A stretch of 64,000 nucleotides of DNA from Hyphomicrobiaceae bacterium (GTDB taxonomy: Bacteria > Pseudomonadota > Alphaproteobacteria > Rhizobiales > Hyphomicrobiaceae): positions 22,810 to 86,809 of the forward strand of contig JAPXTA010000001.1 of assembly GCA_033812735.1 (NCBI GenBank). The letters run 5' to 3'. Shown here in pieces: positions 19,177 through 33,586 of this stretch. Position numbers and translations under genes: made by a program. The notes under the pieces were generated by a model. That model saw only the letters and a program-made list of their open reading frames with translations. It searched no databases and was not told the origin of the DNA. Numbering within the stretch: position 1 is the first letter of the stretch; every line of letters begins with the position of its first letter.

Positions 19177-19751
19177 GAAGCGTCCCCCGGCTTTGGACCA
19201 GGTGCCGCGCGGGAGCTGCCATGTAGACGTGCATCGGTATCCGGATCACGCCGGGGCGTTTCGCTTGGCCACTCCTGCGGGATTGGATGGGCCGCGGCAA
19301 AAGCCGCGACGCGGGCGGCGATGGTGGCGGCCGGCAGGCGGATGTCATCGGTGAGCTTGAAGTAGCGGTAGCCGAGACGGGCATAGATATCGGTGAGATT
19401 GCCCCACAATCGCTCGGAGATGCGGAAGCTCTCGACACCGTTCCGGCTCGTCCAGCCGACTGGCGGCAACACATTGAGTGCGTCGGTAAATTCCGCTTCG
19501 GTGACCTCGCTAACGTCGCGCTTGTAGCGCGCGGCGCCTGCAGCATCGGCCAGTTTCCAGGCCTCCTCGAACGCCATGCGCTGAGCCAGCGGATAGCGCT
19601 CGCGGACCTGTATTTCGTTCTCGGAACAATGCAGTGTCAGCCCATCGTCGGGATGAATGAGATCGAGCACCGTCGTTTCGCCGGGCACGTACCAGCATTC
19701 GGTGAAGGCGGTGTAGGGGAGCCTGCGGCGCGAAGATTGTTCGTTCGTCAT
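19173..19751 (-). CDS. Conserved plasmid/ICE hypothetical protein (192 aa)
   Basis: It is coupled by ATGA to ardC upstream and to the next gene downstream. Confidence 0.6.
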   Translation of the reverse strand: MTNEQSSRRRLPYTAFTECWYVPGETTVLDLIHPDDGLTLHCSENEIQVRERYPLAQRMAFEEAWKLADAAGAARYKRDVSEVTEAEFTDALNVLPPVGWTSRNGVESFRISERLWGNLTDIYARLGYRYFKLTDDIRLPAATIAARVAAFAAAHPIPQEWPSETPRRDPDTDARLHGSSRAAPGPKPGDAS

Positions 19752-20872
19752 GCGCGCGGTCCCTTCTGACGAGAGGCAGGTGCCGAACGCGGCACCTCGT
19801 CCGGTCGCCCCGGCAGTTCGCGCGTCGCGATAGGAGCGGTGTGATCGGGCGCGGCGGCATCACGAGGTGACGGATCGGTCCCGGGTTGCAGGCCGATCAG
19901 GTAGTCGACGGCGCGGGTGGCGAAGGACGCGGCGGAGAAGATCGCCTTGTCGTCGTCTTTCAGGACCTGGAGCCACGAAGCGCAGTACTGCGCATGATCG
20001 ATGCGCGGCGTGTTGGTGACCTCGAGGTGGGCGCACAGGAACGCCGCACCCAGCTCGGCGACCAATTCTTCGAAGGCGTAGGACTTGTCGGCGAAGCGCT
20101 CACCGAACTGGCGGTTCAATCTGTGATCGGCACCGCTGCCGTGAATTTCTTCGTGGAGCAGGGTCGAGTAGTAGGCTTCCGTCGGTGTCGATGATGCAGT
20201 CCCAGTGAACAGCGCGCGCGGCGGCATCTGGATGAAGTCGCCATCACCGCGGGAATCCCGGTGCCGATAGAAGGCGCGCTGGCCACCTTCACGGACCTCA
20301 ATGCCGACGGCGGCGACGAAGGCATCGACGCGTTCGAGGCGCTGCGTGAGATCGGTGCGCGGAACGGCAGGCGGCAGCACTTTGGCGCGGAGCTCGTCGG
20401 GGGCGTCGACCTGATCGATGTTGAACACCCAGGCGGGCTTAGCGAAAAGACGCTTCGGGTCCTCGTCAGAGTCCTCACTCGACGGCGGTGCCGCTTCCTT
20501 CTGGGATTTGGGAACCCACTCGCCATACTTGACGATGAGGGAGCCTTTCTCGCCCTTGCGCACCTGGGCGCCGAGCTCCTCGTATTGCCGGTAGGTGGCC
20601 CAGACCTGATGCTCGAACTTCTTGGCGTCGGCATCGATCCACAGCGAGAGGATGTTGGAGCCGCGGTAGGGCTTGTCGGTCAGTGCGTTCTTCGGCAGCG
20701 TGAACGCGACGCCCGGACGATGCCAGGGCATCTCGAAGGTACCGGCACCGGCGGCGATGGCGGCGGCGATCTTCTCTGTGATGGCCTGATGAACATCCAA
20801 TCTCGGCGAGCGTGGAGAGGTGTCGTCGAGGGCCTGGTAGGTTCGGGGTTTGCGGGGTTTGTGTTTCGGCAT
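19748..20872 (-). CDS. ardC: ArdC-like antirestriction protein (ssDNA-binding N-domain plus metalloprotease-like C-domain)
   Basis: The N-terminus has ITEKIAAAIAAG...MPWHR...KPYRGSNILSLW. The C-terminus has the HExxH motif LLHEEIHGSG. Confidence 0.85.
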   Translation of the reverse strand: MPKHKPRKPRTYQALDDTSPRSPRLDVHQAITEKIAAAIAAGAGTFEMPWHRPGVAFTLPKNALTDKPYRGSNILSLWIDADAKKFEHQVWATYRQYEELGAQVRKGEKGSLIVKYGEWVPKSQKEAAPPSSEDSDEDPKRLFAKPAWVFNIDQVDAPDELRAKVLPPAVPRTDLTQRLERVDAFVAAVGIEVREGGQRAFYRHRDSRGDGDFIQMPPRALFTGTASSTPTEAYYSTLLHEEIHGSGADHRLNRQFGERFADKSYAFEELVAELGAAFLCAHLEVTNTPRIDHAQYCASWLQVLKDDDKAIFSAASFATRAVDYLIGLQPGTDPSPRDAAAPDHTAPIATRELPGRPDEVPRSAPASRQKGPRA

Positions 20873-22152: not shown

Positions 22153-22815
22153 GACGGGGTCTCCGGTTCCGACGTGGAACCCGAAGCCTCGCCAAACGGC
22201 GCGCGATGTTGAAGCTATCAGCGCGATATCGAGCTTCCAGTCACCGACACGCACACGCGACGACGTGATCCGGTCCGTCACCACATGCGCCCTGCCGCCG
22301 GCCAGGCAACTTCGCTGACCAGCCCTCGATAACAGACCTCTGCCATCCTCCTCTGCCCCGCGCATTTCCCTTGTTCGACCGCGCCGCAGGCTTTCCCTCA
22401 CCCCGACCGCGGACTGACGCGGCCGTCGCGCGCAGGGGCGGTCAAGGCCGGTTTCGATGCGGCTGTGCCTTGACGGCTCCGAGCACGATGGCAGGGTCGA
22501 TCGGTCGGGTCGAATGAACCGCAATGGCCAGTTTCATCGATACTGTCGTCTGCGTGACCGCAGATCCGCGTGAGGGATGGTCACCCGCATGGGCGGAGAC
22601 CCACTTTGCTCATGGAAATGACGGACAGGGGCTCCGGTCGGGCGCATCTTCCGCGACCGACTACAGCCCGACCCCGCGCCGTTCGCGCGGGGGCACGACC
22701 GACTTCAACTTGTTTCCATCTTGCGTCTGAGGATGCCATTTTCACCGCGCTGCACTGGCGTGCGGACTGTCATGGTACAGTCGAGCAAGACGACTGTGAT
22801 CGAGAGAGTGAGCGG

Positions 22816-23094
22816 ATGACCAGGAAACCTTCGTCACGCCCGGCGACAACCCAGTCTGCGATCTGCGATGCCGATCTCACGGAGGCGTGGTGGAACGGCC
22901 TCACAGTGAGCGAGCGGAAGGCTTGGAACGAGCGACTGGCTGCGCAAGGTCAACAGCCAACAGCGGATGCTGCCATGGCCTTGCACTACGTCGACATGTT
23001 CTGGGCTGCCGTCCGGCGGCATCATCAGCATCAAGCGAAACTCGTCGCGGAAAAGATCAGGCTCAGACGCTGCGGCACCTCCGCACTAGGATAA
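22816..23094 (+). CDS. Small hypothetical protein (92 aa)
   Basis: The ATG at 22816 follows GAGAGTGAGCGG. The gene converges on cap5. There is no homology evidence. Confidence 0.3.
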
Positions 23095-24258
23095 GACGAT
23101 GGTGCGGATGAAGCCACCGCGATGACGGTTCTGATCCCAGATGACCATTGGCATGTCGGCCTTCGGCATGGTGACGCGGCCGACCTCGACGGCGGCCGAC
23201 ACCGGCAATGCCGGAAACACGTGCAGCGGCGTATCCTGACCGTGCGCCGCCTTGATCCGGTCGAGCATGATGCGCAGCCGGGTGCGGAACGCGGCCAGAT
23301 CATCGGCGCGCTTCAGGATATCGTTGTGCGGATTCTCTGCCTCTATGGACCAAATGGCCGCATCGGAACCGAGGACCTTGTGAACACGATCATCGGTGAT
23401 CGTCGCGCTCAACCCCAACACGAGCGCAGGTTGGCCGTTGACCGTGTCCGGACGTCGCTCGTGGAAGATGATCCGTGGCGTGTCGGATTGCCAGCGCCAA
23501 GTCTGCGGCTCCCGCTGCAGCTGATGGATGACCATCGGCGTGATGTCGCCGAGCAAGCGCCCAAGCAGAATCAAGAGGGGCTGGGGCGCTAGGGCGAACA
23601 CCGACAAGTGCCGAATGGCACGCCGCTCCAAGCGGTCACCGATCTTGGCCGCAAACTGCCGCTCGAGGTTCGTGCGATGGAGTTGCCAGTAGGCCTCCTC
23701 GTCATCGCGCAACGTGCAGCCGATCATCTCAAGATCGATCAGGTCGCGACCATGCGCCGGGTAGCGATCGGGGAGCATGGCCGCAGCGATGGCATCATAG
23801 TTCAAGGGCGATTCGTGGCGGCCGATCTGGGCACCGAAGCGGACGACATGGGATGCGCGGTCGGTGGCAATATCACCAACGATTTCGATGCGACCTTCAT
23901 GAGCACGTTTCATGTCGAGGAGGCGTGCCTCGGGGTGATCGTCGACGGCATCGACATCGATCAGCTTGTGATGCACGTGACAGAGCAACATCAGGTTGGC
24001 GACGTCGTTGACCAACAGCGGGGAGCGCACGGCATCCCCGCGCGGTCCCGTCGGGTGTTCGGCAACGATGTGCGCAACAAAACCGAAGTTGCGATCCTCG
24101 TTGCCCGAGATGAGATCACCGATCAGCGGCTTGTTGCATCCTTCGTACTGGCAACGGCCAGCGGCCCGTGCCCACAGCACGTGACGGGTGGTCGGTGTGA
24201 CCGCACTCGCGCCAGTGCGCAGCGCGGTAACAGAAGAGTTGGTCTTGGCCTTGATCAT
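23086..24258 (-). CDS. cap5: CBASS effector Cap5 (HNH endonuclease fused to a SAVED sensor domain)
   Basis: The N-terminal HNH signature is CQYEGC...GFVAHIVAE...[15 protein letters not shown] long SAVED-size C-terminal domain follows. The start overlaps the stop of the upstream gene (ATGA). Confidence 0.85.
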
Positions 24259-24755
24259 CGTGACAGCTCCGCATTTTCAGTGTTGGGGGAAGGAGGCTCG
24301 GAAAATCTGGTGCGCGGGCGTCGTCGGCGCGTCGAGATGTCGGGGTGTACGCCGCCGCCGTTCCACTCACCGGTCGCGAGCCAATCCTCGAAGTAGAACA
24401 ACCAGAGGCTGGTCCACGGCACGATGGTGCGGTCGAGCCCGAGGCTCGGATTCCATTCGCCTGTGCGCGGCAGGTAGAGACAAAGCCGTGGCGGCTTCTG
24501 CTCGTAGACGTGCGGCAGCCGTCGTCCGTCGGCGAGCGCATTGAGATCGGGGCTATCGATATAGACGGCGGGCGTCAGCCCTTGGCGATAGTCGATGCGG
24601 GCCGCATAGAGCCGCGACAGCGGCGACGGTGATGCCTCGAACTTCCAGATAAGGCGGCCCGCACGCAACGTCCCGTGCCCCGCCGCGATCGGGTTCATCC
24701 GTAAAGCGTAGAACTGCTGGGCAGCGGTCAAAGGACGGGGTGGCGGCGCGGGCAT
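24255..24755 (-). CDS. E2-like (UBC-fold) CBASS accessory protein, Cap2-short type
   Basis: [15 protein letters not shown] has His-to-Cys spacing identical to the UBC HPN...C motif. The gene sits between the CD-NTase and Cap5 genes with near-abutting or overlapping ends. No E1 or JAB domains are present. Confidence 0.6.
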
Positions 24756-24759
24756 GGCC

Positions 24760-25986
24760 TCAGGGTGCTCCGAAGAACGTGTTGGCGCGCACGGGGGTCG
24801 CCGTAACCGCCGCTGTGGTGAGGCCGATGCCTGGAGCGACTTTGAGTAACCCCGATGAGCGGTTCTGGCTGAAGTCGGCCGTCAACGCGTTCATGACCTT
24901 GGTGGCGAGCGACGAGCCGAATGCACCGCCGAGATGCTTGGAGATGACGTCCATGCCCTGGAGATCGGCGAGGTATTCGAGATCCGTCACTGCCTGCGCA
25001 TGCCAACGGAAGAACGCCTGCGGTAGCCGTGCATCGTCGTTCCACTTCTCAGCGAAGTTCTCGCCCTGGGTCGTCTCGTTCCACACGAACCACAGGGTGC
25101 GCCGGCCGTCGCTCCGCTGCTCGATGAACTGCGGCATGCGGCGCAGCACGTCACAGAGCAGATCGAACTCGGTGTCGTAGACGAACTGGCGAACGCAGAA
25201 CTCGTAGCTTTGCGACAGCAGCGTCGTGAGGATCACCGAGATGGGTGCCAGACCGAGCGGGAGGCGCTCGAAGTGCACGTCGCGGTGCCGCTTGGCGATC
25301 TGCACGATGCGCTGGAGGATGCACTTGAAGCCTTCGGTGTCGGGGAACGGCTCGACCTCGCCGCTCTTGCTCGCCATGGTCCGGTCGAAGGCGGTGACAC
25401 GCAGCTGCGGTACCAGCGCGGCACGGCGCTCGAACAGAGACCGGTAGCCCTTCGGGTTCGATGCCTTCCATTCGCGTGCCGCCTTGTCGGGCACGAGCTC
25501 GCCGCCGTTGCCGCAGGCGGGGTTGGGGATCGACGGCGTGATGTCTAGATGGAACTCGTTGGCGTACGTCAGGCGCCAGCAGCGGGCCTTCTCTTCCAGC
25601 AACGGCGCATAATGCCCGTTCTCCCGCAGCCGCCGGCCGACGGCGGCCTTGACGATCGCCGGCGCAATCAGCGTGCCGTTACGGTTGTGGGCAATGAGAT
25701 CGACGTCGTGCTCGTTGCGACCGAGCGGCCGCACCGTAGTGCCGAGTGCCGTCGACCCCTGGAGATAGATGGCGAGCGCCCGCAGCAACGGCTCATCGGA
25801 GGCGGCGAGCCATTGGCCCACACCCTCGTAGCGACGACGGGCCAGCTCGAGCTGGGCAATCGTTAACTCCAGCTCCTGGCACAGCCGCTCGAGGATCCCC
25901 ACGAGCCGCATCTTTCGAGCATTCAGAAGGGAATGGGGCAAGAGGCCAGAGGTCTTGGCTAAGCTATTGATAGAATTATAATTCAT
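24760..25986 (-). CDS. CD-NTase / SMODS-family cyclic (oligo)nucleotide synthase
   Basis: The ATG at 25986 (MNYNS...) is preceded by GAGAGGA. The motif YLQGSTALGTTVRP...EHDVDLIA fits GS...DxD. The C-terminus ends FFGAP, placing a Gly near the end as expected for E2-dependent conjugation. Confidence 0.8.
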   Translation of the reverse strand: MNYNSINSLAKTSGLLPHSLLNARKMRLVGILERLCQELELTIAQLELARRRYEGVGQWLAASDEPLLRALAIYLQGSTALGTTVRPLGRNEHDVDLIAHNRNGTLIAPAIVKAAVGRRLRENGHYAPLLEEKARCWRLTYANEFHLDITPSIPNPACGNGGELVPDKAAREWKASNPKGYRSLFERRAALVPQLRVTAFDRTMASKSGEVEPFPDTEGFKCILQRIVQIAKRHRDVHFERLPLGLAPISVILTTLLSQSYEFCVRQFVYDTEFDLLCDVLRRMPQFIEQRSDGRRTLWFVWNETTQGENFAEKWNDDARLPQAFFRWHAQAVTDLEYLADLQGMDVISKHLGGAFGSSLATKVMNALTADFSQNRSSGLLKVAPGIGLTTAAVTATPVRANTFFGAP

Positions 25987-26013
25987 CACGTCCTCTCGAG
26001 TCGTTACCCTGCG

Positions 26014-26028
26014 GAACGCGCACCGAAC
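26014..26028. promoter_or_regulatory. GAAC-N7-GAAC direct repeat: alphaproteobacterial LexA (SOS) box candidate, or alternatively an ECF -35-like GGAAC element
   Basis: The sequence GAACgcgcaccGAAC lies 28 nt upstream of the CD-NTase start. It sits in the ~180-bp divergent region shared with the sigma-like gene. Confidence 0.4.
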
Positions 26029-26166
26029 CAAGGCATTGGCCTGATTCTCCGCTGGGGCTAGTCTGATGGTTAATGCGGATGGGATAGCGGATTCGGACAT
26101 GGGGGCGTCGATGTCCGAATTTCCGCGGGTGTCCGCATTGAGAGGAGAGGGCAGTAATGGCGGGGT

Positions 26167-26769
26167 TTGGATGTGAGCACGAACGATGAGGTCGACGACG
26201 AGAGCCGTCTTTCGCCGGAAGAATTCAAATCAGCCCTTGGCGAACTCTCGAAATCCGACATGGGCCGGCTGATCCAGATGTCGGAGTATCTTGCCAAACG
26301 CTGCCGGCTGAGTGGCGAGGATCTCCTGCACGAAGCGTTCTGTCGTGCGTTGGAGGGACGTCGTCGGTGTGGTCGAGGTACAGCAATCGTTCCGTTCCTG
26401 TGGGGTGTCATGCGTAGTCTGGCGTCGGAAGAAATAGAATCAATCAAGGCCAACAGACGGCCGGTACTCGCGAGTGAGCTTGTGAGAGAAGGCGATCGAG
26501 ATGGTGGGGCGGATGCACTGCCTGGTGAATCCGCCAACAACGAGGACGCCTTGCTCTCGCGCATCGACGATGGCGTGCTCTTGGAAAAGATCGAGGCACT
26601 CGTGAGCGGCGACGATCAGCTCGCGATGTTGGTCGAGGGATTGAAGGATGGCATGCGCGGCGAAGCCCTTCAGGATCTCTTGGGGGTAGATGTCAAGGGG
26701 CTTGCCGCTCTGCGCAAGAGACTGAAGCGATCGGTGACCTCGTTCAACCGGGAAAGGATCGCGTCATGA
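26167..26769 (+). CDS. ECF sigma-70-like protein
   Basis: EDLLHEAFCRAL and FLWGVMRSLASEE are region-2-like. DQLAMLVEGLKDGMRGEALQDLLGVDVKGLAALRKRLKR is region-4-like. The start is uncertain: TTG at 26167, GTG at 26173, or a later ATG. Confidence 0.5.
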   Translation: MDVSTNDEVDDESRLSPEEFKSALGELSKSDMGRLIQMSEYLAKRCRLSGEDLLHEAFCRALEGRRRCGRGTAIVPFLWGVMRSLASEEIESIKANRRPVLASELVREGDRDGGADALPGESANNEDALLSRIDDGVLLEKIEALVSGDDQLAMLVEGLKDGMRGEALQDLLGVDVKGLAALRKRLKRSVTSFNRERIAS

Positions 26770-27170
26770 CAACGAAGAAATCTCCGCTCGATGCACTCGA
26801 TGACGCAATCTTTTCCGAAATCATGACCGCGAGCGACGCCGAAGTCATGGCGGACGTCGGCGATGCGTCCATCGCGAAGGGCTTCGCCGTCCTGGAGGGA
26901 GCCAAGCAGACAGTTGCACGGCAACGTTTCCTTGAAGCGAAGGCGGCTCTGGAAGCGGATCGCGTTGTCACGAGGCAGACGGTCGTTCCCTTGGCAAGGG
27001 CCCGTGCAAAGGCGGATCTGGAGAAACTTCTACAATCGGATGCAGCGTTGCGAGGCAAGCTGACACTCGCTGCCCGCAAGGCAACGAGCAACGACATGAG
27101 CGATGACGAGGGGCTGCTGGACGACCTTGCAGAGCTGCAGAGAGACGCTGAGAAGGACGTCGATGGCTAA
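26766..27170 (+). CDS. Acidic helical hypothetical protein (134 aa), a candidate anti-sigma factor or protease substrate
   Basis: Its start overlaps the stop of the sigma-like gene (ATGA). Its stop overlaps the start of the ImmA-like gene (ATGGCTAA). It has no TM segment. Confidence 0.5.
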   Translation: MTTKKSPLDALDDAIFSEIMTASDAEVMADVGDASIAKGFAVLEGAKQTVARQRFLEAKAALEADRVVTRQTVVPLARARAKADLEKLLQSDAALRGKLTLAARKATSNDMSDDEGLLDDLAELQRDAEKDVDG

Positions 27171-27933
27171 ACTCCCTCCGGCCGAGGTACTGCTGCAGCA
27201 TCTCGGGATAAGCCAGCCGAGTGACATCGATTTGGAGGTGATCGCTTGGCACCAGGGCCTCAAGGTGAAGTACCGGGAGCTGACCTCCTGTGAGGCTCGC
27301 ATCGTGGCAATGGGTGATCGAGGGATCGTGACGATCGACAACAGAAAGTTGCCTGAACGGCAGCGATTCTCACTAGGTCACGAGCTGGGTCACTGGCACC
27401 ATCACCGCGGCAAGTGTCTGATCTGCCGCTCGGATGAGATTGGTGGATGGGGTGGCAAGGCGATTGATCCGGAACGTGTGGCTGACGGATATGCGTCCGA
27501 CCTCTTGATGCCGTGGTACCTGTTCAAATCGGCGCTGAGGACCACGAAGCGGCCTACCTTGTCGTTTCTCCGCGATATCAAGGCAACCTTTGGAGTGAGC
27601 CTGACAGCGGCCGCATTTCGGATCATCGACTCTGATCACTTTCCGATGATGCTCATTATTCACGGCGAGAAGCGGCGAAAAATGTTTCGTGCGTCGCGGT
27701 CGGTACCGTCTCGTTGGTTTCCCAAGGATGAGCTGGACCAGGATAGCCAAGCTTTCGACATGCTCTATGGAAAGGCCCAGGAGCGATCACAGCCGATCAA
27801 GATCGGCGCTGATGCGTGGTTCGATCGACGCGACGCTGATCGCTATGACATTTTCGAACAGTCGTTCGCGTTGCCGGGCAACGAGGTTGCTACTTTGCTG
27901 TTGTTCGAGGATGAGGACATGTTGGAAGAATAG
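27163..27933 (+). CDS. ImmA/IrrE-family Zn-metallopeptidase (CapP-like position next to CBASS)
   Basis: It has HELGHWHHH (HExxH) followed by ERVADGYASDLLMPWYLF, typical of COG2856. Confidence 0.8.
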   Translation: MAKLPPAEVLLQHLGISQPSDIDLEVIAWHQGLKVKYRELTSCEARIVAMGDRGIVTIDNRKLPERQRFSLGHELGHWHHHRGKCLICRSDEIGGWGGKAIDPERVADGYASDLLMPWYLFKSALRTTKRPTLSFLRDIKATFGVSLTAAAFRIIDSDHFPMMLIIHGEKRRKMFRASRSVPSRWFPKDELDQDSQAFDMLYGKAQERSQPIKIGADAWFDRRDADRYDIFEQSFALPGNEVATLLLFEDEDMLEE

Positions 27934-27949
27934 CTGAGGGCGAGTTGCC

Positions 27950-28642
27950 TCACGCCACAGCCTGCTCGCTCTCCCTCTGACGCCGGACCGCGAACGGGGG
28001 CTTCTCCCAGGGCGTGTCGGCCGTCGTCCACAGCACACCGAAGAGCGTGCGCAGATGCTGGGCGAGGGGCTTGGCGTCGATGATGATGGTCTGGCGGCGC
28101 AAGGTGCCCGATTGCACGGCGACCTTGTCACCGTAGATGAAGATCGGCGCGTTGCTGCAGAACCCTTCGCGCGGCATCCAGCGATAGCTCGCCTCGTCCC
28201 GCAGGAAATCCTTGACGCCTTCGGCGATGAGAATGCGCTCGCGCACGCCGGCCTGTGCCAGCCGTGCACGCAACGTCGGATGCACGTCGGGACCGTCGAG
28301 CTCGGCGGCGAGCTGCTCGTCGAGGCCGATGATGCAAACCTCCTGGCTCGGATCGTTCGGGGCATGGCGCATGATGGAGCTCAAGAGGGCGGTCGCGGCA
28401 TCGCGGCCTTGGTGCACGGTAACGACATCGGTTTTCAGGCGCACGCCGGAAGGTGGACAGAAATCGACGCCGGCGGCCTCGAAGGTGGCTTCGATGGCTT
28501 CGAGCGTCTCCCGGCGCGGCGTGGAGGCCCCGCTCTCGATCGCCTTGATGGAGGAAAGCGCCATCCCGGTCGCGCGGGCGAGCTCGGTCTGGCTCCATTC
28601 GAGAAGCGCGCGTGCGGCACGTATTTGTCGGTTGTCTATCAT
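27950..28642 (-). CDS. XRE-family HTH transcriptional regulator with an unknown C-terminal domain
   Basis: The ATG at 28642 starts the sequence MIDNRQIRAARALLEWSQTELARATGMALSSIKAIESG. Confidence 0.8.
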   Translation of the reverse strand: MIDNRQIRAARALLEWSQTELARATGMALSSIKAIESGASTPRRETLEAIEATFEAAGVDFCPPSGVRLKTDVVTVHQGRDAATALLSSIMRHAPNDPSQEVCIIGLDEQLAAELDGPDVHPTLRARLAQAGVRERILIAEGVKDFLRDEASYRWMPREGFCSNAPIFIYGDKVAVQSGTLRRQTIIIDAKPLAQHLRTLFGVLWTTADTPWEKPPFAVRRQRESEQAVA

Positions 28643-28744
28643 GACGTTAGCATAAGTTCCTGAGACGGAACAAAACAACCGCAAATAACCCCCGAATTAC
28701 TTTCATGGGGCGGACTGGCCGGAGCGGGCGGCCTTTTTGGCGGG

Positions 28745-29074
28745 TCAGACGCCTTTGAGGGTCGCTCTCGCGACGGCCCGGCGGGCGGCGGCGTCTGCTT
28801 TCGACTGCTTGCCGGCCGAGCGCAGCTTCAGCTCGAGGCGCAGCGCATCGGTATAGGCCATGGTGACATCGACGATGGGCGGCCGTTCGACGCTTGCCGG
28901 CTCGGCCTGGAACGAGGCCCACAACGCGCCCTTGAGCGCTGCGAGCCGCTCGGTCTCCGACGACAGGCGGTTCGTTTCGGGATCGGCCGGCACCGCATCG
29001 ACAGCATCGCGCTCGGCTGACCCGTTGAGGGTGGCATAGGGTGCGGAAGCTGGCCGGGGCTGGTGGGAGGACAT
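28745..29074 (-). CDS. Hypothetical protein (109 aa)
   Basis: This is an ORF with plausible composition only. Confidence 0.35.
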   Translation of the reverse strand: MSSHQPRPASAPYATLNGSAERDAVDAVPADPETNRLSSETERLAALKGALWASFQAEPASVERPPIVDVTMAYTDALRLELKLRSAGKQSKADAAARRAVARATLKGV

Positions 29075-29249
29075 GGAGCACGCGTGTTCGAGGGCATCTC
29101 ATCTTGACCGGGCGGACTCAGAGTTCAATCGGCAAGGATTAAACCCGAAACGACAAACCAGCCGAAATGGCCGCAGAGACCGGACCATGCGAAAGGAGAC
29201 ACCGCATTACCATTTGAGACGCAGGCGGATGGTTTGCTAAACTCACGCC

Positions 29250-29510
29250 ATGACTGCCGTACCGACCCGACTCGAACTGCTCGCCGCTCTCGACGATCCC
29301 GACCCGAACAACAAGCTCAGCATCGCGATCTCGCTGGCAACCGAGCGCCTGGTGGCGGCGATGAACGAGCAGGCGCGTCGTGCCGGCCAGATTCCCGATC
29401 CCGTGGTGCTGCCGTTGCCCGACACGGAGATCGAGGCGTTCGCGCTCGAGGTGTTCATGGAGGAGATCACGCGGATGGGCGTGCGCGTCGTGCTGCGCGG
29501 CCTGCACTGA
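29250..29510 (+). CDS. Hypothetical protein (86 aa)
   Basis: This is an ORF with plausible composition only, divergent from the previous ORF. Confidence 0.35.
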   Translation: MTAVPTRLELLAALDDPDPNNKLSIAISLATERLVAAMNEQARRAGQIPDPVVLPLPDTEIEAFALEVFMEEITRMGVRVVLRGLH

Positions 29511-29556: not shown

Positions 29557-30492
29557 TCAGGATCGACGGCGTCGACCGGCACTCCACGGCCCGCCGGCCT
29601 TCCAGCGCTTGGTGAAGGCCGTGCCGGACGCCGCGGCGGCGAGCGGCGGCAGCACGAACGCGGCGATGTCCTCGACGGCGGCGGTGAGATCACCCGGCTC
29701 GAGCAACAACGCCTCGCGGTTGATGAACGCCTCCCACAACTGAGCCTTCTGCGCGTCGCTTGAGAATGCCGCCGACAGCCCGACGGGAACATCCGCCGGC
29801 AGCGGCGTGCCGCGCCGCGCGAAGGTGGCGATCAATGCGTCGCGCACGGTCGCGCCATCGAACGCAAACAGGCGCGCCAACGCCAGGAGATCGTAGTAGT
29901 CCTTGATGCGGGTGTTGACGGACCCCAGCACGACAATGGCTTGCAGCTTCTCGGCGAGCACGGTCTCTTTCGGGTAGGCCCGGATCATCGGCGCCGGCGC
30001 ATCGAGGAGCGCCGGGAACGCCAGCTCGACGATGGCGGGCGTCACGGCATCGCCGAAGCCGATGTCGATCTGCACGGGGATCTGCGTGCGGGCGAGCCGC
30101 GCCGTCAGCTTGACGCGGACGCCGCCGTACTCCTGGTTGCCGCGGATCGGCTCTGCCCGCAACGTGGCGATGTCGAACACCAGCCCGTCGTCGGGGACTT
30201 CGGCGCGGCAGACCGCCTCGATGCGGTCGGCGATCGCTGGCACGGCGGCATCACCGAACACGAGAAGATCGAGATCTTGGGTGGGACGGAACGGATCGGG
30301 CAGCCAGGCGGTGAACAGCATGGCACCCTTGAGCACGAAGCGGTCGCGTTCGTCCGACACACTCAATCGATAGAGCAACCGCTCGATGGCATAGCGGCGC
30401 AGCACGAAGGCAAGATCGATGCCCTTCGTCGTCGCGACGTTGCGCAGCCGGGTCGCGACCGATGCGGGCAGATTGACGGGCTTACGTGTCAT
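29557..30492 (-). CDS. abiEii: AbiEii/AbiGii-family nucleotidyltransferase toxin
   Basis: The ATG at 30492 (MTRKPVNLPASV...) overlaps the end of abiEi by 11 nt. The motifs FVLKGAMLF and QDLDLLVFGD are present. Confidence 0.85.
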   Translation of the reverse strand: MTRKPVNLPASVATRLRNVATTKGIDLAFVLRRYAIERLLYRLSVSDERDRFVLKGAMLFTAWLPDPFRPTQDLDLLVFGDAAVPAIADRIEAVCRAEVPDDGLVFDIATLRAEPIRGNQEYGGVRVKLTARLARTQIPVQIDIGFGDAVTPAIVELAFPALLDAPAPMIRAYPKETVLAEKLQAIVVLGSVNTRIKDYYDLLALARLFAFDGATVRDALIATFARRGTPLPADVPVGLSAAFSSDAQKAQLWEAFINREALLLEPGDLTAAVEDIAAFVLPPLAAAASGTAFTKRWKAGGPWSAGRRRRS

Positions 30493-31093
30493 CGGCGGTG
30501 ACGGCTTCGAGATAGGGGCGCAGCACCGACCAGATACGCAGTGATTTCGCGAGCCGCGCGATGTCGGCGGGCCGCGCCTTGCCGGAGCGCACGCCGAGCC
30601 GCAGCGCTTCGAGCGCCACATCGAGCCCGACAATGCGACGGTAGCGGAAGCAATCCACGATGGTCTTGGCGGGCGAGAAGATGCGCACAGCGACACCGTC
30701 GATATCGACACGCTGGACGCCGGCTTGCAGCGCGGCCTCGCCGAAATGCACGAAGCGCACGGCGCGATGGCTGATCGATGGCTTGCGATCCTTGAGACCG
30801 ATGGCCATCCAGACGGCGCGCGGGTTCTGCAGGGTGATCTCGTGATGGGCGAGCGCCGAGATGAGGCAGATGACGCCCTTGGGGACGCGGACGGCCATTT
30901 CGGCCAGATCGTGGGAGAGCGACACGTCGCGATCGGCCAGCTCGTAGAGGCCACGGCCGGCCCGCACGATGGTGCCGTCGTCGACGAGCCGCGCAAGGCT
31001 GGCGGCGTGGACACCGGCGGCGGTCAGGTCGGATAGGCGCATGATGCCCTGCTTGCCGAGCAGGGCCAGGGCGCGGTCACGCTGAGTGGGCAT
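30482..31093 (-). CDS. abiEi: AbiEi-family antitoxin/transcriptional regulator
   Basis: The ATG is at 31093. The N-terminal winged-helix segment is ALLGKQGIMRLSDLTAAGVHAASLARLVDDGTIVRAGRGLY, and the protein has AbiEi-like size. Confidence 0.85.
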   Translation of the reverse strand: MPTQRDRALALLGKQGIMRLSDLTAAGVHAASLARLVDDGTIVRAGRGLYELADRDVSLSHDLAEMAVRVPKGVICLISALAHHEITLQNPRAVWMAIGLKDRKPSISHRAVRFVHFGEAALQAGVQRVDIDGVAVRIFSPAKTIVDCFRYRRIVGLDVALEALRLGVRSGKARPADIARLAKSLRIWSVLRPYLEAVTADDT

Positions 31094-31306
31094 GTTACGT
31101 TCTGTCGTATATCCACTGTACATACCGACAATTCATAACACAAAACCAGTCCCAGCGGAACAGGATTCCGAAGGCGACCAGACCGCCCCCTCCGATTTCA
31201 GCCGTATAACATACATTACGATAAATTTTCGCGCGGAAGTGCCGACAGAACAACGGTTTCTGCCGAATCTGCGCCCGCATGCATTATGTTAAATCCGGCT
31301 AGACTC

Positions 31307-31878: not shown

Positions 31879-33132
31879 CTACGCGCGCGCCTGCAGAATG
31901 TCGTCGAAGCAGGTCGTATAGCGCGGCGACACGTTGGCCTGCCGCATGCCCCAACGCGGTGACGGCGCGACGGCGGCGGGACGCAGCGTTCCACGCCCGA
32001 AGCGGCGGTTGATCGCATCGAGGGCGCGCATGGCGTTGGCCGACCGGACGGGATCTCGTGTCGGCATCAAGTCCGCGGGCTGTGACGATACTGATGCGAG
32101 ATCCAGGAGCACCACGCCGGCCTTGGCGTAGCGATACCCGTTCCGCCAGAGACGATCGGCCGCCCGCGTCGCGCCGGCGATGAGCGCGAACGTGTCGGCG
32201 GTCGGCTCGATATCGAAGGTCGTCTGGTTGGCGTACTGGGGATCGGATTTCGAGAACCGGTTGGTCAGCACGAACACTTGCATCGCGGTCGCGACGAGGC
32301 CATGGCGGCGCAACTTTTCTCCGGCACGGGTGGCGTAGGTAGCGATGGCTGCGAGCAATTCGTCCTTTCTGTCGACGGGCCGGCCGAACGACCGCGTGAC
32401 GGCGAGCGACTTGCGCGCGGCCGGCACCTCGCTGAATGGCGCACAGCGGATCCCGCGCAACTCCCAAGCGGTCCGCAGGCCGACGACCGACAGCAGCTTG
32501 CGGATGTCATCGTCGTCGAGTGCGATGAACGCGGCGATGGTTTTGATGCCGCGGGCCGTCAGCTTGGCGGCCGCAGCGGGGCCGATGCCCCAGACGTCGC
32601 CGATGGCAGTCGCGCCATAGATCTGCGAGCGCACGCCGGCATCACCGAGATCGACGACACCGCTGTCGCTGCGCTCCTTCTTTGCAACGGCATTGGCGAG
32701 CTTGGCGATGGTCTTGGTTGGGCCGATGCCGACGCAGGTCGGAATCTTCGTTGCACGCAACACGGCCTGCCGGGCGGCGATCGAAGCAGAGACTGGATCG
32801 TTGACGCCAGCGAAATCGAGGAACATCTCGTCGATCGAATAGGGCTCGACCGCCAGCACATGCTCGCACAGCACCTCGTACATGCGCCGCGACATGTCGC
32901 CATAGAGCGCGTAGTTCGAGCTCTTCCAGATCACGGGCGCCAATTCCGGTCGCGATTTCGCCAGATGGTAAGGCTCGCCCATCCGCACGCCGAGGTCTTT
33001 GGCTTCCTGCGTGCGGGCGATGGCGCAGCCGTCGTTGTTGGAGAGCACGACGACGGGTCGCCCCCTGAGGCGCGGGTCGAACGCGCGCTCGCAGGAGCAG
33101 TAGAAGGAATTGCCGTCGATGAGCGCGAGCAT
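31879..33132 (-). CDS. umuC: Y-family DNA polymerase V catalytic subunit
   Basis: The ATG at 33132 starts MLALIDGNSFYCSCERAFDPRLRGRPVVVLSNNDGC, which is canonical for UmuC. Confidence 0.9.
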   Translation of the reverse strand: MLALIDGNSFYCSCERAFDPRLRGRPVVVLSNNDGCAIARTQEAKDLGVRMGEPYHLAKSRPELAPVIWKSSNYALYGDMSRRMYEVLCEHVLAVEPYSIDEMFLDFAGVNDPVSASIAARQAVLRATKIPTCVGIGPTKTIAKLANAVAKKERSDSGVVDLGDAGVRSQIYGATAIGDVWGIGPAAAAKLTARGIKTIAAFIALDDDDIRKLLSVVGLRTAWELRGIRCAPFSEVPAARKSLAVTRSFGRPVDRKDELLAAIATYATRAGEKLRRHGLVATAMQVFVLTNRFSKSDPQYANQTTFDIEPTADTFALIAGATRAADRLWRNGYRYAKAGVVLLDLASVSSQPADLMPTRDPVRSANAMRALDAINRRFGRGTLRPAAVAPSPRWGMRQANVSPRYTTCFDDILQARA

Positions 33133-33134
33133 GG

Positions 33135-33503
33135 TTACACTTTGAAGCGCACGAGCACCTCGACGATGGCCCAGATCTCTACGTCGTCGGCGACGGGCTT
33201 CGGCTCCCGGCGCGACGGCTTCAACCACCAGCCGCCGTCCTTGAAGGCGAGCGTGGCGAGGATGACGTCACCATCGACGATGGCGACACAGACCTTGCCC
33301 GCGATCGGATCGGCGGCGGCGTTGACCACGAGCACGTCACCGTGCCGGATGCCGCGGGCGGCAAGGGCCTGGCCGACCACGCGCACGGGATAAAGGTGCG
33401 GACGGCGCAGATCGAGCAGCGCCGCCAGATCGATCACCGGTTCGATGTGATCCTGCGCCGGGCTTTGAAAGCCGGTCGTCTCATCCCCTGCATAGCCCCG
33501 CAT
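33135..33503 (-). CDS. umuD: UmuD-like S24 peptidase (LexA family)
   Basis: The ATG is at 33503. It has GFQSPAQD, the catalytic-core-like segment RVVGQALAARGIRHGDVLVV and a downstream Lys region. It lies directly upstream of umuC. Confidence 0.85.
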   Translation of the reverse strand: MRGYAGDETTGFQSPAQDHIEPVIDLAALLDLRRPHLYPVRVVGQALAARGIRHGDVLVVNAAADPIAGKVCVAIVDGDVILATLAFKDGGWWLKPSRREPKPVADDVEIWAIVEVLVRFKV

Positions 33504-33520
33504 TGTCCCTCCAATAAATA

Positions 33521-33535
33521 GAACATAACAGGAAC
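33521..33535. promoter_or_regulatory. Alphaproteobacterial SOS box (GAAC-N7-GAAC, read as GTTC-N7-GTTC on the umuD strand)
   Basis: The sequence GAACataacagGAAC lies 18 nt upstream of the umuD start, in an AT-rich promoter stretch. Confidence 0.65.
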
Positions 33536-33586
33536 GATTGAGTTTGCAAACAGCCTTCCTCATGACGGGCGGAAGCGGCCGGCAAG

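Follow-up and report, generated by a model that had tools for sequence, protein, structure and literature searches.

A predicted sigma factor, a small acidic partner, and CapP form a triad divergent from a CBASS operon in a Hyphomicrobiaceae bacterium

The defense regulators CapW/BrxR, CapH with CapP, and CapK with CapS have all been described as repressors that are released by DNA damage (PMC13373217). Here we examine a stretch of 64,000 nucleotides from a Hyphomicrobiaceae bacterium (contig JAPXTA010000001.1; the whole stretch is referred to as the window, and coordinates without a locus label are its own), in which an operon of the cyclic oligonucleotide-based antiphage signaling system (CBASS) faces a triad of three overlapping genes. 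These encode a predicted extracytoplasmic function (ECF)-type sigma factor, a small acidic partner protein, and a metallopeptidase assigned to CapP. Most likely, the triad turns CBASS on through release of the sigma factor, where the known CapH/CapP system relies on removal of a repressor. To the model in full, that of a DNA-damage-responsive positive regulator in which sigma factor, anti-sigma factor, and CapP bring about activation, we give a probability of about 0.57.

With CapH+CapP modules, the triad has in common the protease family with its cysteine-switch loop, an orientation opposite to that of the immune operon, an association with CBASS, Pycsar, Bub, and other systems alike, and a conserved Arg near the C terminus of the small partner. 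In CapH, the corresponding cut made by CapP falls at F82|R83, and the R83A exchange prevents it (Lau et al. 2022; bioRxiv 10.1101/2022.04.27.489752). Unlike CapH, however, the partner is not an XRE-type helix-turn-helix (HTH) repressor and has no DNA-binding domain, there is an extra gene for an ECF-type sigma factor, the predicted outcome is activation through sigma release and not derepression, and a predicted bipartite promoter occurs twice where an operator would be expected. The co-occurrence of a sigma factor with CapP is already on record: for 24 CBASS systems, Lau et al. (2022) noted that capH and capP are accompanied by "a predicted sigma70-family sigma factor". The architecture, of which the earlier note on this DNA knew no described CBASS regulator, is thus not wholly undescribed, though those systems were listed and not analyzed there. 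In part of their Table S1, a gap of one gene separates the nucleotidyltransferase from "capH" in the "Sigma-70 present" rows of Bradyrhizobium and Aureimonas, which is the triad layout with the middle gene labeled capH; "Minimal CapP" Bradyrhizobium rows in that part also have a one-gene gap before "capH". Likewise, some of the 168 "CapH+CapP" Bub operons reported in the Bub paper may be triads. As far as our literature search shows, no earlier record covers the middle protein as a non-CapH, the pair of promoters, the sigma family beyond the triads, the occurrence beside Pycsar, Bub, and Bil-like operons, or the activation logic.

The triad also resembles the IrrE/PprI-DdrO pair of Deinococcus and the ImmA-ImmR pair of ICEBs1 and phages, where an M78 metallopeptidase with a GAF-like domain senses DNA damage (single-stranded DNA [ssDNA] in the case of PprI) and cuts a small regulator near its C terminus. 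In the PprI-DdrO-ssDNA model of Lau et al. (2022), the cleavage-site loop of DdrO touches ssDNA through an Arg, and the R118A variant of DdrO interacted more weakly with PprI. In contrast to the triad, the substrates in these pairs are HTH repressors, and no sigma factor is present.

The closest mechanistic analogues are RseA/sigma-E, CalpL/CalpT/CalpS, and DdvS/DdvA. In the sigma-E/RseA system, the sigma operon is autoregulated, and an anti-sigma factor restrains the ECF sigma factor until, upon a signal, proteolysis removes the inhibitor (DegS, RseP, and then ClpXP via the exposed VAA); RseA(1-108) ends in VAA, a documented ClpXP degron, and the predicted ...LAA end of the cut partner resembles this and the ssrA degron. 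The partner is nevertheless cytoplasmic and soluble, with no membrane span and no homology to RseA, and the initiating protease would be a cytosolic ssDNA sensor instead of an envelope-stress sensor. The CalpL-CalpT-CalpS set of type III CRISPR loci likewise unites a protease, an anti-sigma factor, and a sigma factor of ECF-like type that is freed when the anti-sigma factor is cleaved; there, however, the SAVED-Lon protease is activated by cyclic oligoadenylate made by the defense system and is an output, whereas the CapP module would be an input that controls defense expression, and the proteins are non-homologous. In Myxococcus xanthus, the ECF sigma/anti-sigma pair DdvS/DdvA governs transcription of a defense island that contains CBASS (PMC11506125), but DdvA is a transmembrane anti-sigma factor and the pair has neither a CapP-type protease nor a link to DNA damage. 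Finally, ECF41 sigma factors have a TGTC...-N16(+/-1)-CG.. promoter upstream of their own gene and of one neighboring target (PMC3426412). They differ in being regulated by a fused C-terminal domain, where the triad has a separate partner, and the sigma family described here lies below the Pfam thresholds.

Gene layout and domain assignments of the triad

The earlier note had recognized three overlapping plus-strand genes that run away from the CBASS nucleotidyltransferase (CD-NTase) gene, and this layout was recovered in full, along with the following operon opposite them.

26167 (TTG start, 200 amino acids [aa]) or 26173 (GTG start, 198 aa) to 26769, plus strand: gene 1, predicted divergent ECF-type (group 4-like) sigma factor (Pfam, Protein Data Bank [PDB] profiles, AlphaFold2 [AF2], Foldseek, hhalign)
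26766 to 27170, plus strand: gene 2, acidic helical 134-aa partner (isoelectric point, 4.65), candidate anti-sigma factor and CapP substrate
27163 to 27933, plus strand: gene 3, CapP, a zinc metallopeptidase of the ImmA/IrrE family with cysteine-switch loop, linker, and GAF-like domain (PADLOC capP, Pfam, PDB)
24760 to 25989, minus strand: CD-NTase, first gene of the CBASS operon (PADLOC Cyclase, 4e-111; Pfam SMODS, 5e-11)
24255 to 24755, minus strand: E2-only Cap2-like protein (PADLOC E2, 7e-53; PF26395 E2-CBASS in the public gene call)
23086 to 24258, minus strand: Cap5-type HNH-SAVED endonuclease effector (PADLOC Effector/Endonuclease, 1e-156; Pfam SAVED, 2.5e-48)

By these profile matches, the CD-NTase/E2/HNH-SAVED Cap5 operon is classified as type II-short CBASS. 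We place the CD-NTase start at ATG 25989 because the profile match begins at residue 62 of a longer open reading frame (ORF) and a GAGAGGA ribosome-binding site precedes that ATG; the intergenic gap is therefore 177 bp up to TTG 26167, or 183 bp up to GTG 26173, the start chosen by the public gene call on identical DNA. The ATG of gene 2 overlaps the gene 1 stop as ATGA, and gene 3 overlaps gene 2 as ATGGCTAA.

The suggestion that gene 1 has segments like sigma regions 2 and 4 is supported by homology and fold, more firmly for region 2 than for region 4, and we assign its product to the ECF sigma factors as a divergent homolog. At 198 to 200 aa with two domains, it has the ECF group 4 architecture without regions 1.1 and 3. 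Pfam Sigma70_r2 is matched in 20/24 close and 33/113 distant relatives, and the best PDB profile match of the family is region 2 of Mycobacterium tuberculosis SigH. A 113-sequence family alignment compared by hhalign with Escherichia coli RpoE (a manually entered sequence) gave a probability of 90% and an E value of 1.6e-6 over 132 columns, running co-linearly from region 2 into the region 4 HTH and pairing GMRGEALQDLLGVDVKGLAALRKRLKR with GLSYEEIAAIMDCPVGTVRSRIFR. The AF2 model comprises two helical domains, the C-terminal one of four helices, joined by a disordered linker (residues 103 to 132) whose sequence is not conserved. Its top Foldseek matches, with weak E values, are nearly all ECF/sigma-70 or primary sigma factors, and the alignments to SigE, SigH, and AlgU span 170 to 200 columns. 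At the start of the gene lies a 10-codon ORF (MAGFGCEHER; 26157 to 26189, plus strand), the ATG of which is optimally spaced from the ribosome-binding site GGAGAGGG and which overlaps the TTG/GTG start in a different frame; it is probably fortuitous, as it is not kept in L010 or L011 (labels with L denote our collected loci and labels with P denote individual proteins).

The description of gene 2 as an acidic, helical 134-aa product proved accurate. Searches of the protein against Pfam, NCBIfam, the PDB with its CapH structures, and PADLOC with its capH profile gave no match, nor did 12 homologs match anything in the first three of these, and we therefore conclude from sequence that the partner is not CapH. 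It shows no HTH and no match to the Pfam HTH families; it also has no HxxxCxxC motif and no membership in the described anti-sigma families (ASD/ZAS class I, RseA, NepR, and others), outside of which it may still work like an anti-sigma factor. Its gene is always found between those for the sigma factor and CapP. The window protein carries an N-terminal motif (residues 7 to 37), A102-A103-R104, and an acidic C-terminal helix, D..GLLDDLAEL; across the family, the C-terminal segment reads K-(M/L)-T-(L/M/I)-A-A-R followed by the acidic helix D..GLLEDLAEL, and the AAR is invariant in 46/46 complete unique homologs.

A direct functional link between partner and CapP is supported by natural fusions of the two (P0053 to P0055; 392 aa, three 90%-identity clusters, one of them on a 640-kb contig). 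There is also a 290-aa sigma-partner fusion, P0031, beside a Bub-type operon (L008, 8001 to 8873, and L009). Missing the last region 4 helix of the sigma factor and the first ~25 residues of the partner, it probably arose by deletion, perhaps as a switch in decay, and was not used as functional evidence. Separately, MAFFT repeatedly paired KLTLAARKA of the partner (C-terminal part, 27054 to 27170) with the VSLTAAAFRI helix of CapP (27575 to 27640, residues ~140 to 158), and the acidic tail of the partner (DDEGLLDDLAEL) with the acidic C terminus of CapP (EDEDMLEE), which may be coincidence or may be substrate or pseudosubstrate mimicry. Mixed MAFFT alignments in which partner sequences from stand-alone sigma loci (see below) were misplaced onto the sigma factor or CapP were discarded.

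The earlier identification of gene 3 as an ImmA/IrrE metallopeptidase stands and can be made more specific. The 256-aa product, with the motif HELGHWHHH (HELGH at residues 72 to 76), matches PADLOC capP at 1.2e-62 over positions 9 to 241 of the 242 in the profile and Pfam Peptidase_M78 at 9e-12, and its best PDB match in phmmer is Thauera CapP (7T5T). The second Cys of its HHHRGKCLIC aligns with the Cys of Thauera CapP that Lau et al. (2022) named the switch and is invariant in 38 homologs. In the AF2 model of a 55%-identical homolog, the fusion P0053, the CapP part has a predicted local distance difference test (pLDDT) score of >90, and Foldseek places 7T5T at the top (E = 2.8e-14; TMt, 0.68), followed by PprI/IrrE. 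By these matches, gene 3 encodes a true CapP, with a three-domain fold (peptidase, HTH-like linker, and GAF) that was checked on this homolog model. A CapH-type HTH protein is missing from the triad.

Beyond gene 3, a convergent gene that ends 17 bp from capP (27950 to 28684, minus strand) is the sole HTH_3 gene in the vicinity. Its product of 244 aa combines an XRE-type HTH at the N terminus (Pfam HTH_3, 6e-10) with an unknown C-terminal domain. We considered it as a hidden CapH and rejected it: its PADLOC capH match is weak (1.5e-5), it is convergent, and it is absent from triad loci other than the near-identical L030.

The bipartite motif and its distribution

The gap between the two operons contains a motif that we predict to be the cognate promoter of the sigma factor, present in two divergent copies.

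26112 to 26138, plus strand: predicted sigma-dependent promoter of the triad operon, consisting of TGTCCGAAT (-35-like, 26112 to 26120), N12, and CCGCAT (-10-like, 26133 to 26138); exact family consensus
26073 to 26099, minus strand: predicted sigma-dependent promoter facing CBASS; same bipartite motif, second exact match in the window

No further exact match occurs in the 64-kb window. The triad-side -10 block ends ~28 to 34 nt before the gene 1 start, with the above-mentioned ribosome-binding site in between, and the CBASS-side -10 block lies ~84 nt upstream of the CD-NTase ATG. Across loci, the gap is laid out as ATGCGG-N12-ATTCGGACA, a variable spacer, and TGTCCGAAT-N12-CCGCAT, i.e., two copies of one bipartite element (equivalent to GTCCG-N16-CGCAT), one directed toward the sigma operon and the other toward the defense operon; exact matches in the fetched loci are confined to that gap. 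Both sites, at a score of 11/15 or better, are present in 42/49 triad loci versus 5/1691 background random segments, independently of the type of defense operon. GTCCG-N16-CGCAT is exact upstream of the sigma gene in 33 of the 49, and in triad loci the -10 block ends 13 to 33 nt before the sigma start codon, with a ribosome-binding site in between. Where the -10 block varies, it does so in both copies together (CGCTT in L006, L012, L038, and L043; AGCAT in L026). The G and T that precede CCGCAT are partly conserved (24/34 and 17/34) and are invariant in the -35 block. The spacer inside each unit is fixed at 12, whereas anything from 8 to 24 bp separates one -35 block from the other; rigid units at a variable distance fit two promoters and not one palindromic operator. 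By sequence, the geometry of GTCCG-N16-CGCAT matches published ECF promoters such as that of ECF41, TGTCACA-n16-CGTC (PMC3426412).

A simple scan of the gap found no sigma-70-type promoter toward CBASS. The only sigma-70-like match in the area, TTGGCT-16-TATAAT (10/12; 25955 to 25982, plus strand), falls within the CD-NTase gene, at its AT-rich 5' end, and is oriented toward the sigma operon; such matches occur at chance level, and this one could give basal transcription of the triad.

To place the triad in a wider context, homologs were looked up on their contigs, and species-representative genomes and metagenomes were scanned. The order sigma-partner-CapP with overlapping stops and starts is kept in 13/13 species-representative genomes with a close relative and in ~32 metagenome contigs, the exceptions being three truncated or degenerate cases; the arrangement is therefore not due to chance. 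The hosts are mostly Alphaproteobacteria (Sphingomonadales and Hyphomicrobiales), with some Beta- and Gammaproteobacteria, and no relatives were found in viral contigs. In every triad locus with enough upstream sequence (~40 classifiable), a divergent defense-type operon is present, the type of which varies as follows.

CBASS II-short: the window, L010, L011, L030, and L031
CBASS III with HORMA/TRIP13: L001
Pycsar (PycC, E2, and PycTIR): ~16 loci
Two kinds of Bub operon: ~17 loci
Bil-like operons: L021 and L028
E2-E1-JAB fusion operon: L020

The triad is thus a mobile regulatory cassette and not a CBASS accessory. It is not specific to CBASS, since most copies flank Pycsar or Bub operons. The earlier note had named a distribution mostly away from CBASS as refuting its reading, but CapH/CapP is distributed in this way as well.

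Two of these loci carry broken genes. In Bradyrhizobium japonicum (L028, 4027 to 4595; GCA_021261335.1), the sigma gene of the triad beside a Bil-like operon is split into two frames, and a C-terminal piece of 97 aa is all that the gene caller retained; splits of this kind may be the reason that catalogs lack the sigma factor. In Sphingobium aquiterrae (L012, 3586 to 7810), the PycC cyclase gene is in two pieces ~2.5 kb apart, which suggests an insertion that disrupts Pycsar and leaves the triad and its promoters intact.

The sigma factor itself belongs to a larger family. A profile of close homologs of the window protein recovered 2556 representative clusters (50% identity), 1199 of them at E<=1e-10, of proteins of ~190 aa. 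The metagenome scan, which used a 24-sequence alignment of such homologs, separated the triad group, with identities of at least 35% to the window sigma factor, from a second group at 26 to 34%. Sigma genes of the second group adjoin neither a partner-like gene nor a CapP gene, and their neighbors are ordinary (EAL, GGDEF, or solute-binding proteins). This large stand-alone branch was observed in ordinary chromosomal contexts at L061 to L109 (e.g., L109, 6935 to 7902, and L063, 6986 to 7782). Each such locus carries a single oriented motif copy directly upstream of the ribosome-binding site and start codon, as expected for an autoregulated ECF promoter. Here the form is GTCCG-N17-CGCAT, one base longer, found upstream of 43/46 stand-alone sigma genes, with only 3 matches elsewhere in 471 kb. 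Since these sigma factors lack gene 2 and CapP and still carry the motif, the motif belongs to the sigma factor.

The stand-alone genes also shed light on the partner. In ~40/46 loci, the sigma gene is followed by an ORF of 80 to 120 aa that starts 15 nt before the sigma stop codon and, at L061 to L109, overlaps it by 16 nt. The conserved N terminus of its product (aL.RlLdALE.ELL.AsDeEI) aligns with residues 7 to 37 of the window partner (hhalign E = 1.6e-4 versus 0.03 to 0.28 for controls). The presence of this motif in loci without CapP ties the N-terminal module to the sigma factor and not to CapP, and the C-terminal segment with the AAR is found only where CapP is present. On this sequence evidence, the partner appears modular, with an N-terminal segment common to all partners of the sigma family that is likely the sigma-binding part. 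The stand-alone branch thus resembles a family of ECF-like sigma factors and partners that has not been described before and that uses a separate promoter code.

Proposed mechanism and competing explanations

We propose that the two back-to-back copies of the cognate promoter in the 177-bp gap would drive, on one side, the genes for sigma factor, partner, and CapP (autoregulation) and, on the other, those for CD-NTase, E2, and Cap5. In unstressed cells, the 134-aa partner would use its N-terminal helix module to keep the sigma factor inactive. Upon damage, CapP, for which activation by ssDNA is presumed by homology, would cut the partner at the invariant Ala-Ala|Arg, ~30 residues from its C terminus (A103|R104 in the window protein, by analogy). 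The cut would disable the partner and release the sigma factor, possibly because the new ...TLAA C terminus, which resembles the ssrA and RseA (VAA) degrons, would deliver it to ClpXP; such a degron would account for release of the sigma factor by a cut that lies distal to the sigma-binding segment. The released sigma factor would then raise transcription of both operons, and since partner and CapP would be co-induced, the switch would reset when the signal ends. What sequence analysis itself shows are the identities of the genes, the conservation of the promoter pair and of the motifs, and the way the triad recurs as a module beside defense operons; binding of the partner to the sigma factor, its cleavage and the site thereof, and a part for ClpXP are inferences. 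The putative roles of the partner as anti-sigma factor and as CapP substrate are supported by the shared N-terminal motif, the invariant AAR, and the natural fusions. The model fits every computational test that we ran. We consider it highly probable that gene 1 encodes a sigma factor that drives both mapped promoters, and the expectation of the earlier note that the sigma factor drives CBASS agrees with the comparative promoter evidence, which is consistent with control of both the sigma operon and CBASS by this factor.

Several observations weigh against this model. In the profile searches that had been suggested, Peptidase_M78 was clear in gene 3, and Sigma70_r2 reached only an E value of 0.005 and 17 bits in the window sigma factor, under the curated cutoff of 24 bits; Sigma70_r4 was matched in no member of the sigma family. 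The -35 and -10 blocks are alike (GTCCGAAT and, in about half of the sites, GTCCGCAT), which would suit repeated operator sites. The spacer from GAAT to CGC is ~3 bp shorter than in classic GGAAC-N16-CGT promoters, and the geometry fits an ECF promoter only if TGTCCG is the -35 core. On the side of the partner, both its binding to the sigma factor and its cleavage are putative and indirectly supported, the hhalign match between the partner families is modest (probability, 51%), and in the AF2 model of the fusion P0053 the partner part has pLDDT values of 35 to 63 and gives no docking information on the AAR. A cut at 103/104 would, moreover, leave the putative sigma-binding N terminus intact, and therefore a further step would be needed for release.

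The main rival reading, unlikely in our estimate, is that the sigma-like protein is instead a DNA-binding repressor, a stand-in for CapH whose HTH, perhaps together with the partner, occupies four GTCCG(A/C)AT-like boxes until a cut by CapP derepresses a promoter of the housekeeping sigma factor. The likeness of the two blocks, which form a nested inverted repeat, would favor such an arrangement, as would the failure of Pfam to recognize region 4 and the treatment of these modules as CapH+CapP repressors by Lau et al. (2022) and in the Bub paper. However, the homology to RpoE is co-linear through regions 2 to 4, the fold matches are sigma factors, the units are rigid in spacing and yet separated by 8 to 24 bp, and the G and T invariant in the -35 block are kept before CCGCAT in only 24/34 and 17/34 cases. 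Furthermore, the stand-alone relatives have a single oriented copy upstream of the start, and the gap yielded no sigma-70-type promoter toward CBASS that could be derepressed. That the triad is a self-contained stress or mobile-element module, with CBASS merely adjacent and transcribed independently, we regard as very improbable: although the surroundings, with ArdC, AbiE, and UmuDC, resemble a mobile-element island and a chance-level sigma-70-like match lies nearby, all of the ~40 classifiable triad loci face a divergent defense-type operon of changing type, and the second promoter copy is aimed at that operon in 42/49 loci.

A further explanation, which we hold to be doubtful, accepts that the sigma factor drives both promoters and gives the partner another role: it could adapt or inhibit CapP, act as a co-activator, or serve as a scaffold, and CapP could act on the sigma factor itself (e.g., in its disordered linker) or on some other target. 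The partner indeed matches no known anti-sigma family, its natural fusion is to CapP and not to an intact sigma factor, the only sigma-partner fusion found (P0031) looks degenerate, and the sigma factor offers a 30-residue disordered linker. That linker is not conserved, though, while the N-terminal motif of the partner is common to the ORF coupled to CapP-less sigma factors, and its invariant Arg occupies a CapH/DdrO-like position near the C terminus.

Returning to sigma release, we tentatively extend it to an evolutionary scenario that we think possible though well short of even odds. A widespread family of ECF-like sigma factors, distinguished by the promoter code GTCCG-N16/17-CGCAT and by small partners of its own, would have had one branch captured by mobile defense islands, where the partner gained a CapP-cleavable C-terminal module. 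The Ala-Ala|Arg cut would expose an ssrA-like ...LAA, ClpXP would strip the anti-sigma factor, and the abortive-infection systems CBASS, Pycsar, Bub, and Bil would come on by positive control. The triad would then be a cytoplasmic, ssDNA-triggered counterpart of the RseA cascade.

Genomic surroundings and implications

The locus is surrounded by a defense island of mobile-element-like character, which includes the following genes.

19748 to 20872, minus strand: ArdC-type anti-restriction protein (ArdcN and zincin peptidase)
29557 to 31123, minus strand: AbiEii/AbiEi toxin-antitoxin pair
31879 to 33563, minus strand: UmuD/UmuC-like translesion polymerase pair

UmuDC is itself DNA-damage related. 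An Rfam scan of positions 22500 to 29500 and a search of a plasmid collection each gave no match.

If the activation model is true, the triad would be the first of the group that includes CapW/BrxR, CapH+CapP, and CapK+CapS to exert positive control through a dedicated sigma factor, and it would do so by reusing the ssDNA-sensing protease. Predictions of basal expression would change, since there would be no housekeeping promoter. Predictions of host range would change as well, as the module would bring its own promoter specificity and would be movable between hosts. New routes of phage counter-defense, such as anti-sigma mimics, would also come into view. Should the capture scenario hold in addition, many cataloged "CapH+CapP repressors" would really be activators. 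The analysis yields a compact, predicted orthogonal set of sigma factor, anti-sigma factor, and promoter, together with a precise hypothesis for the cleavage site and degron.

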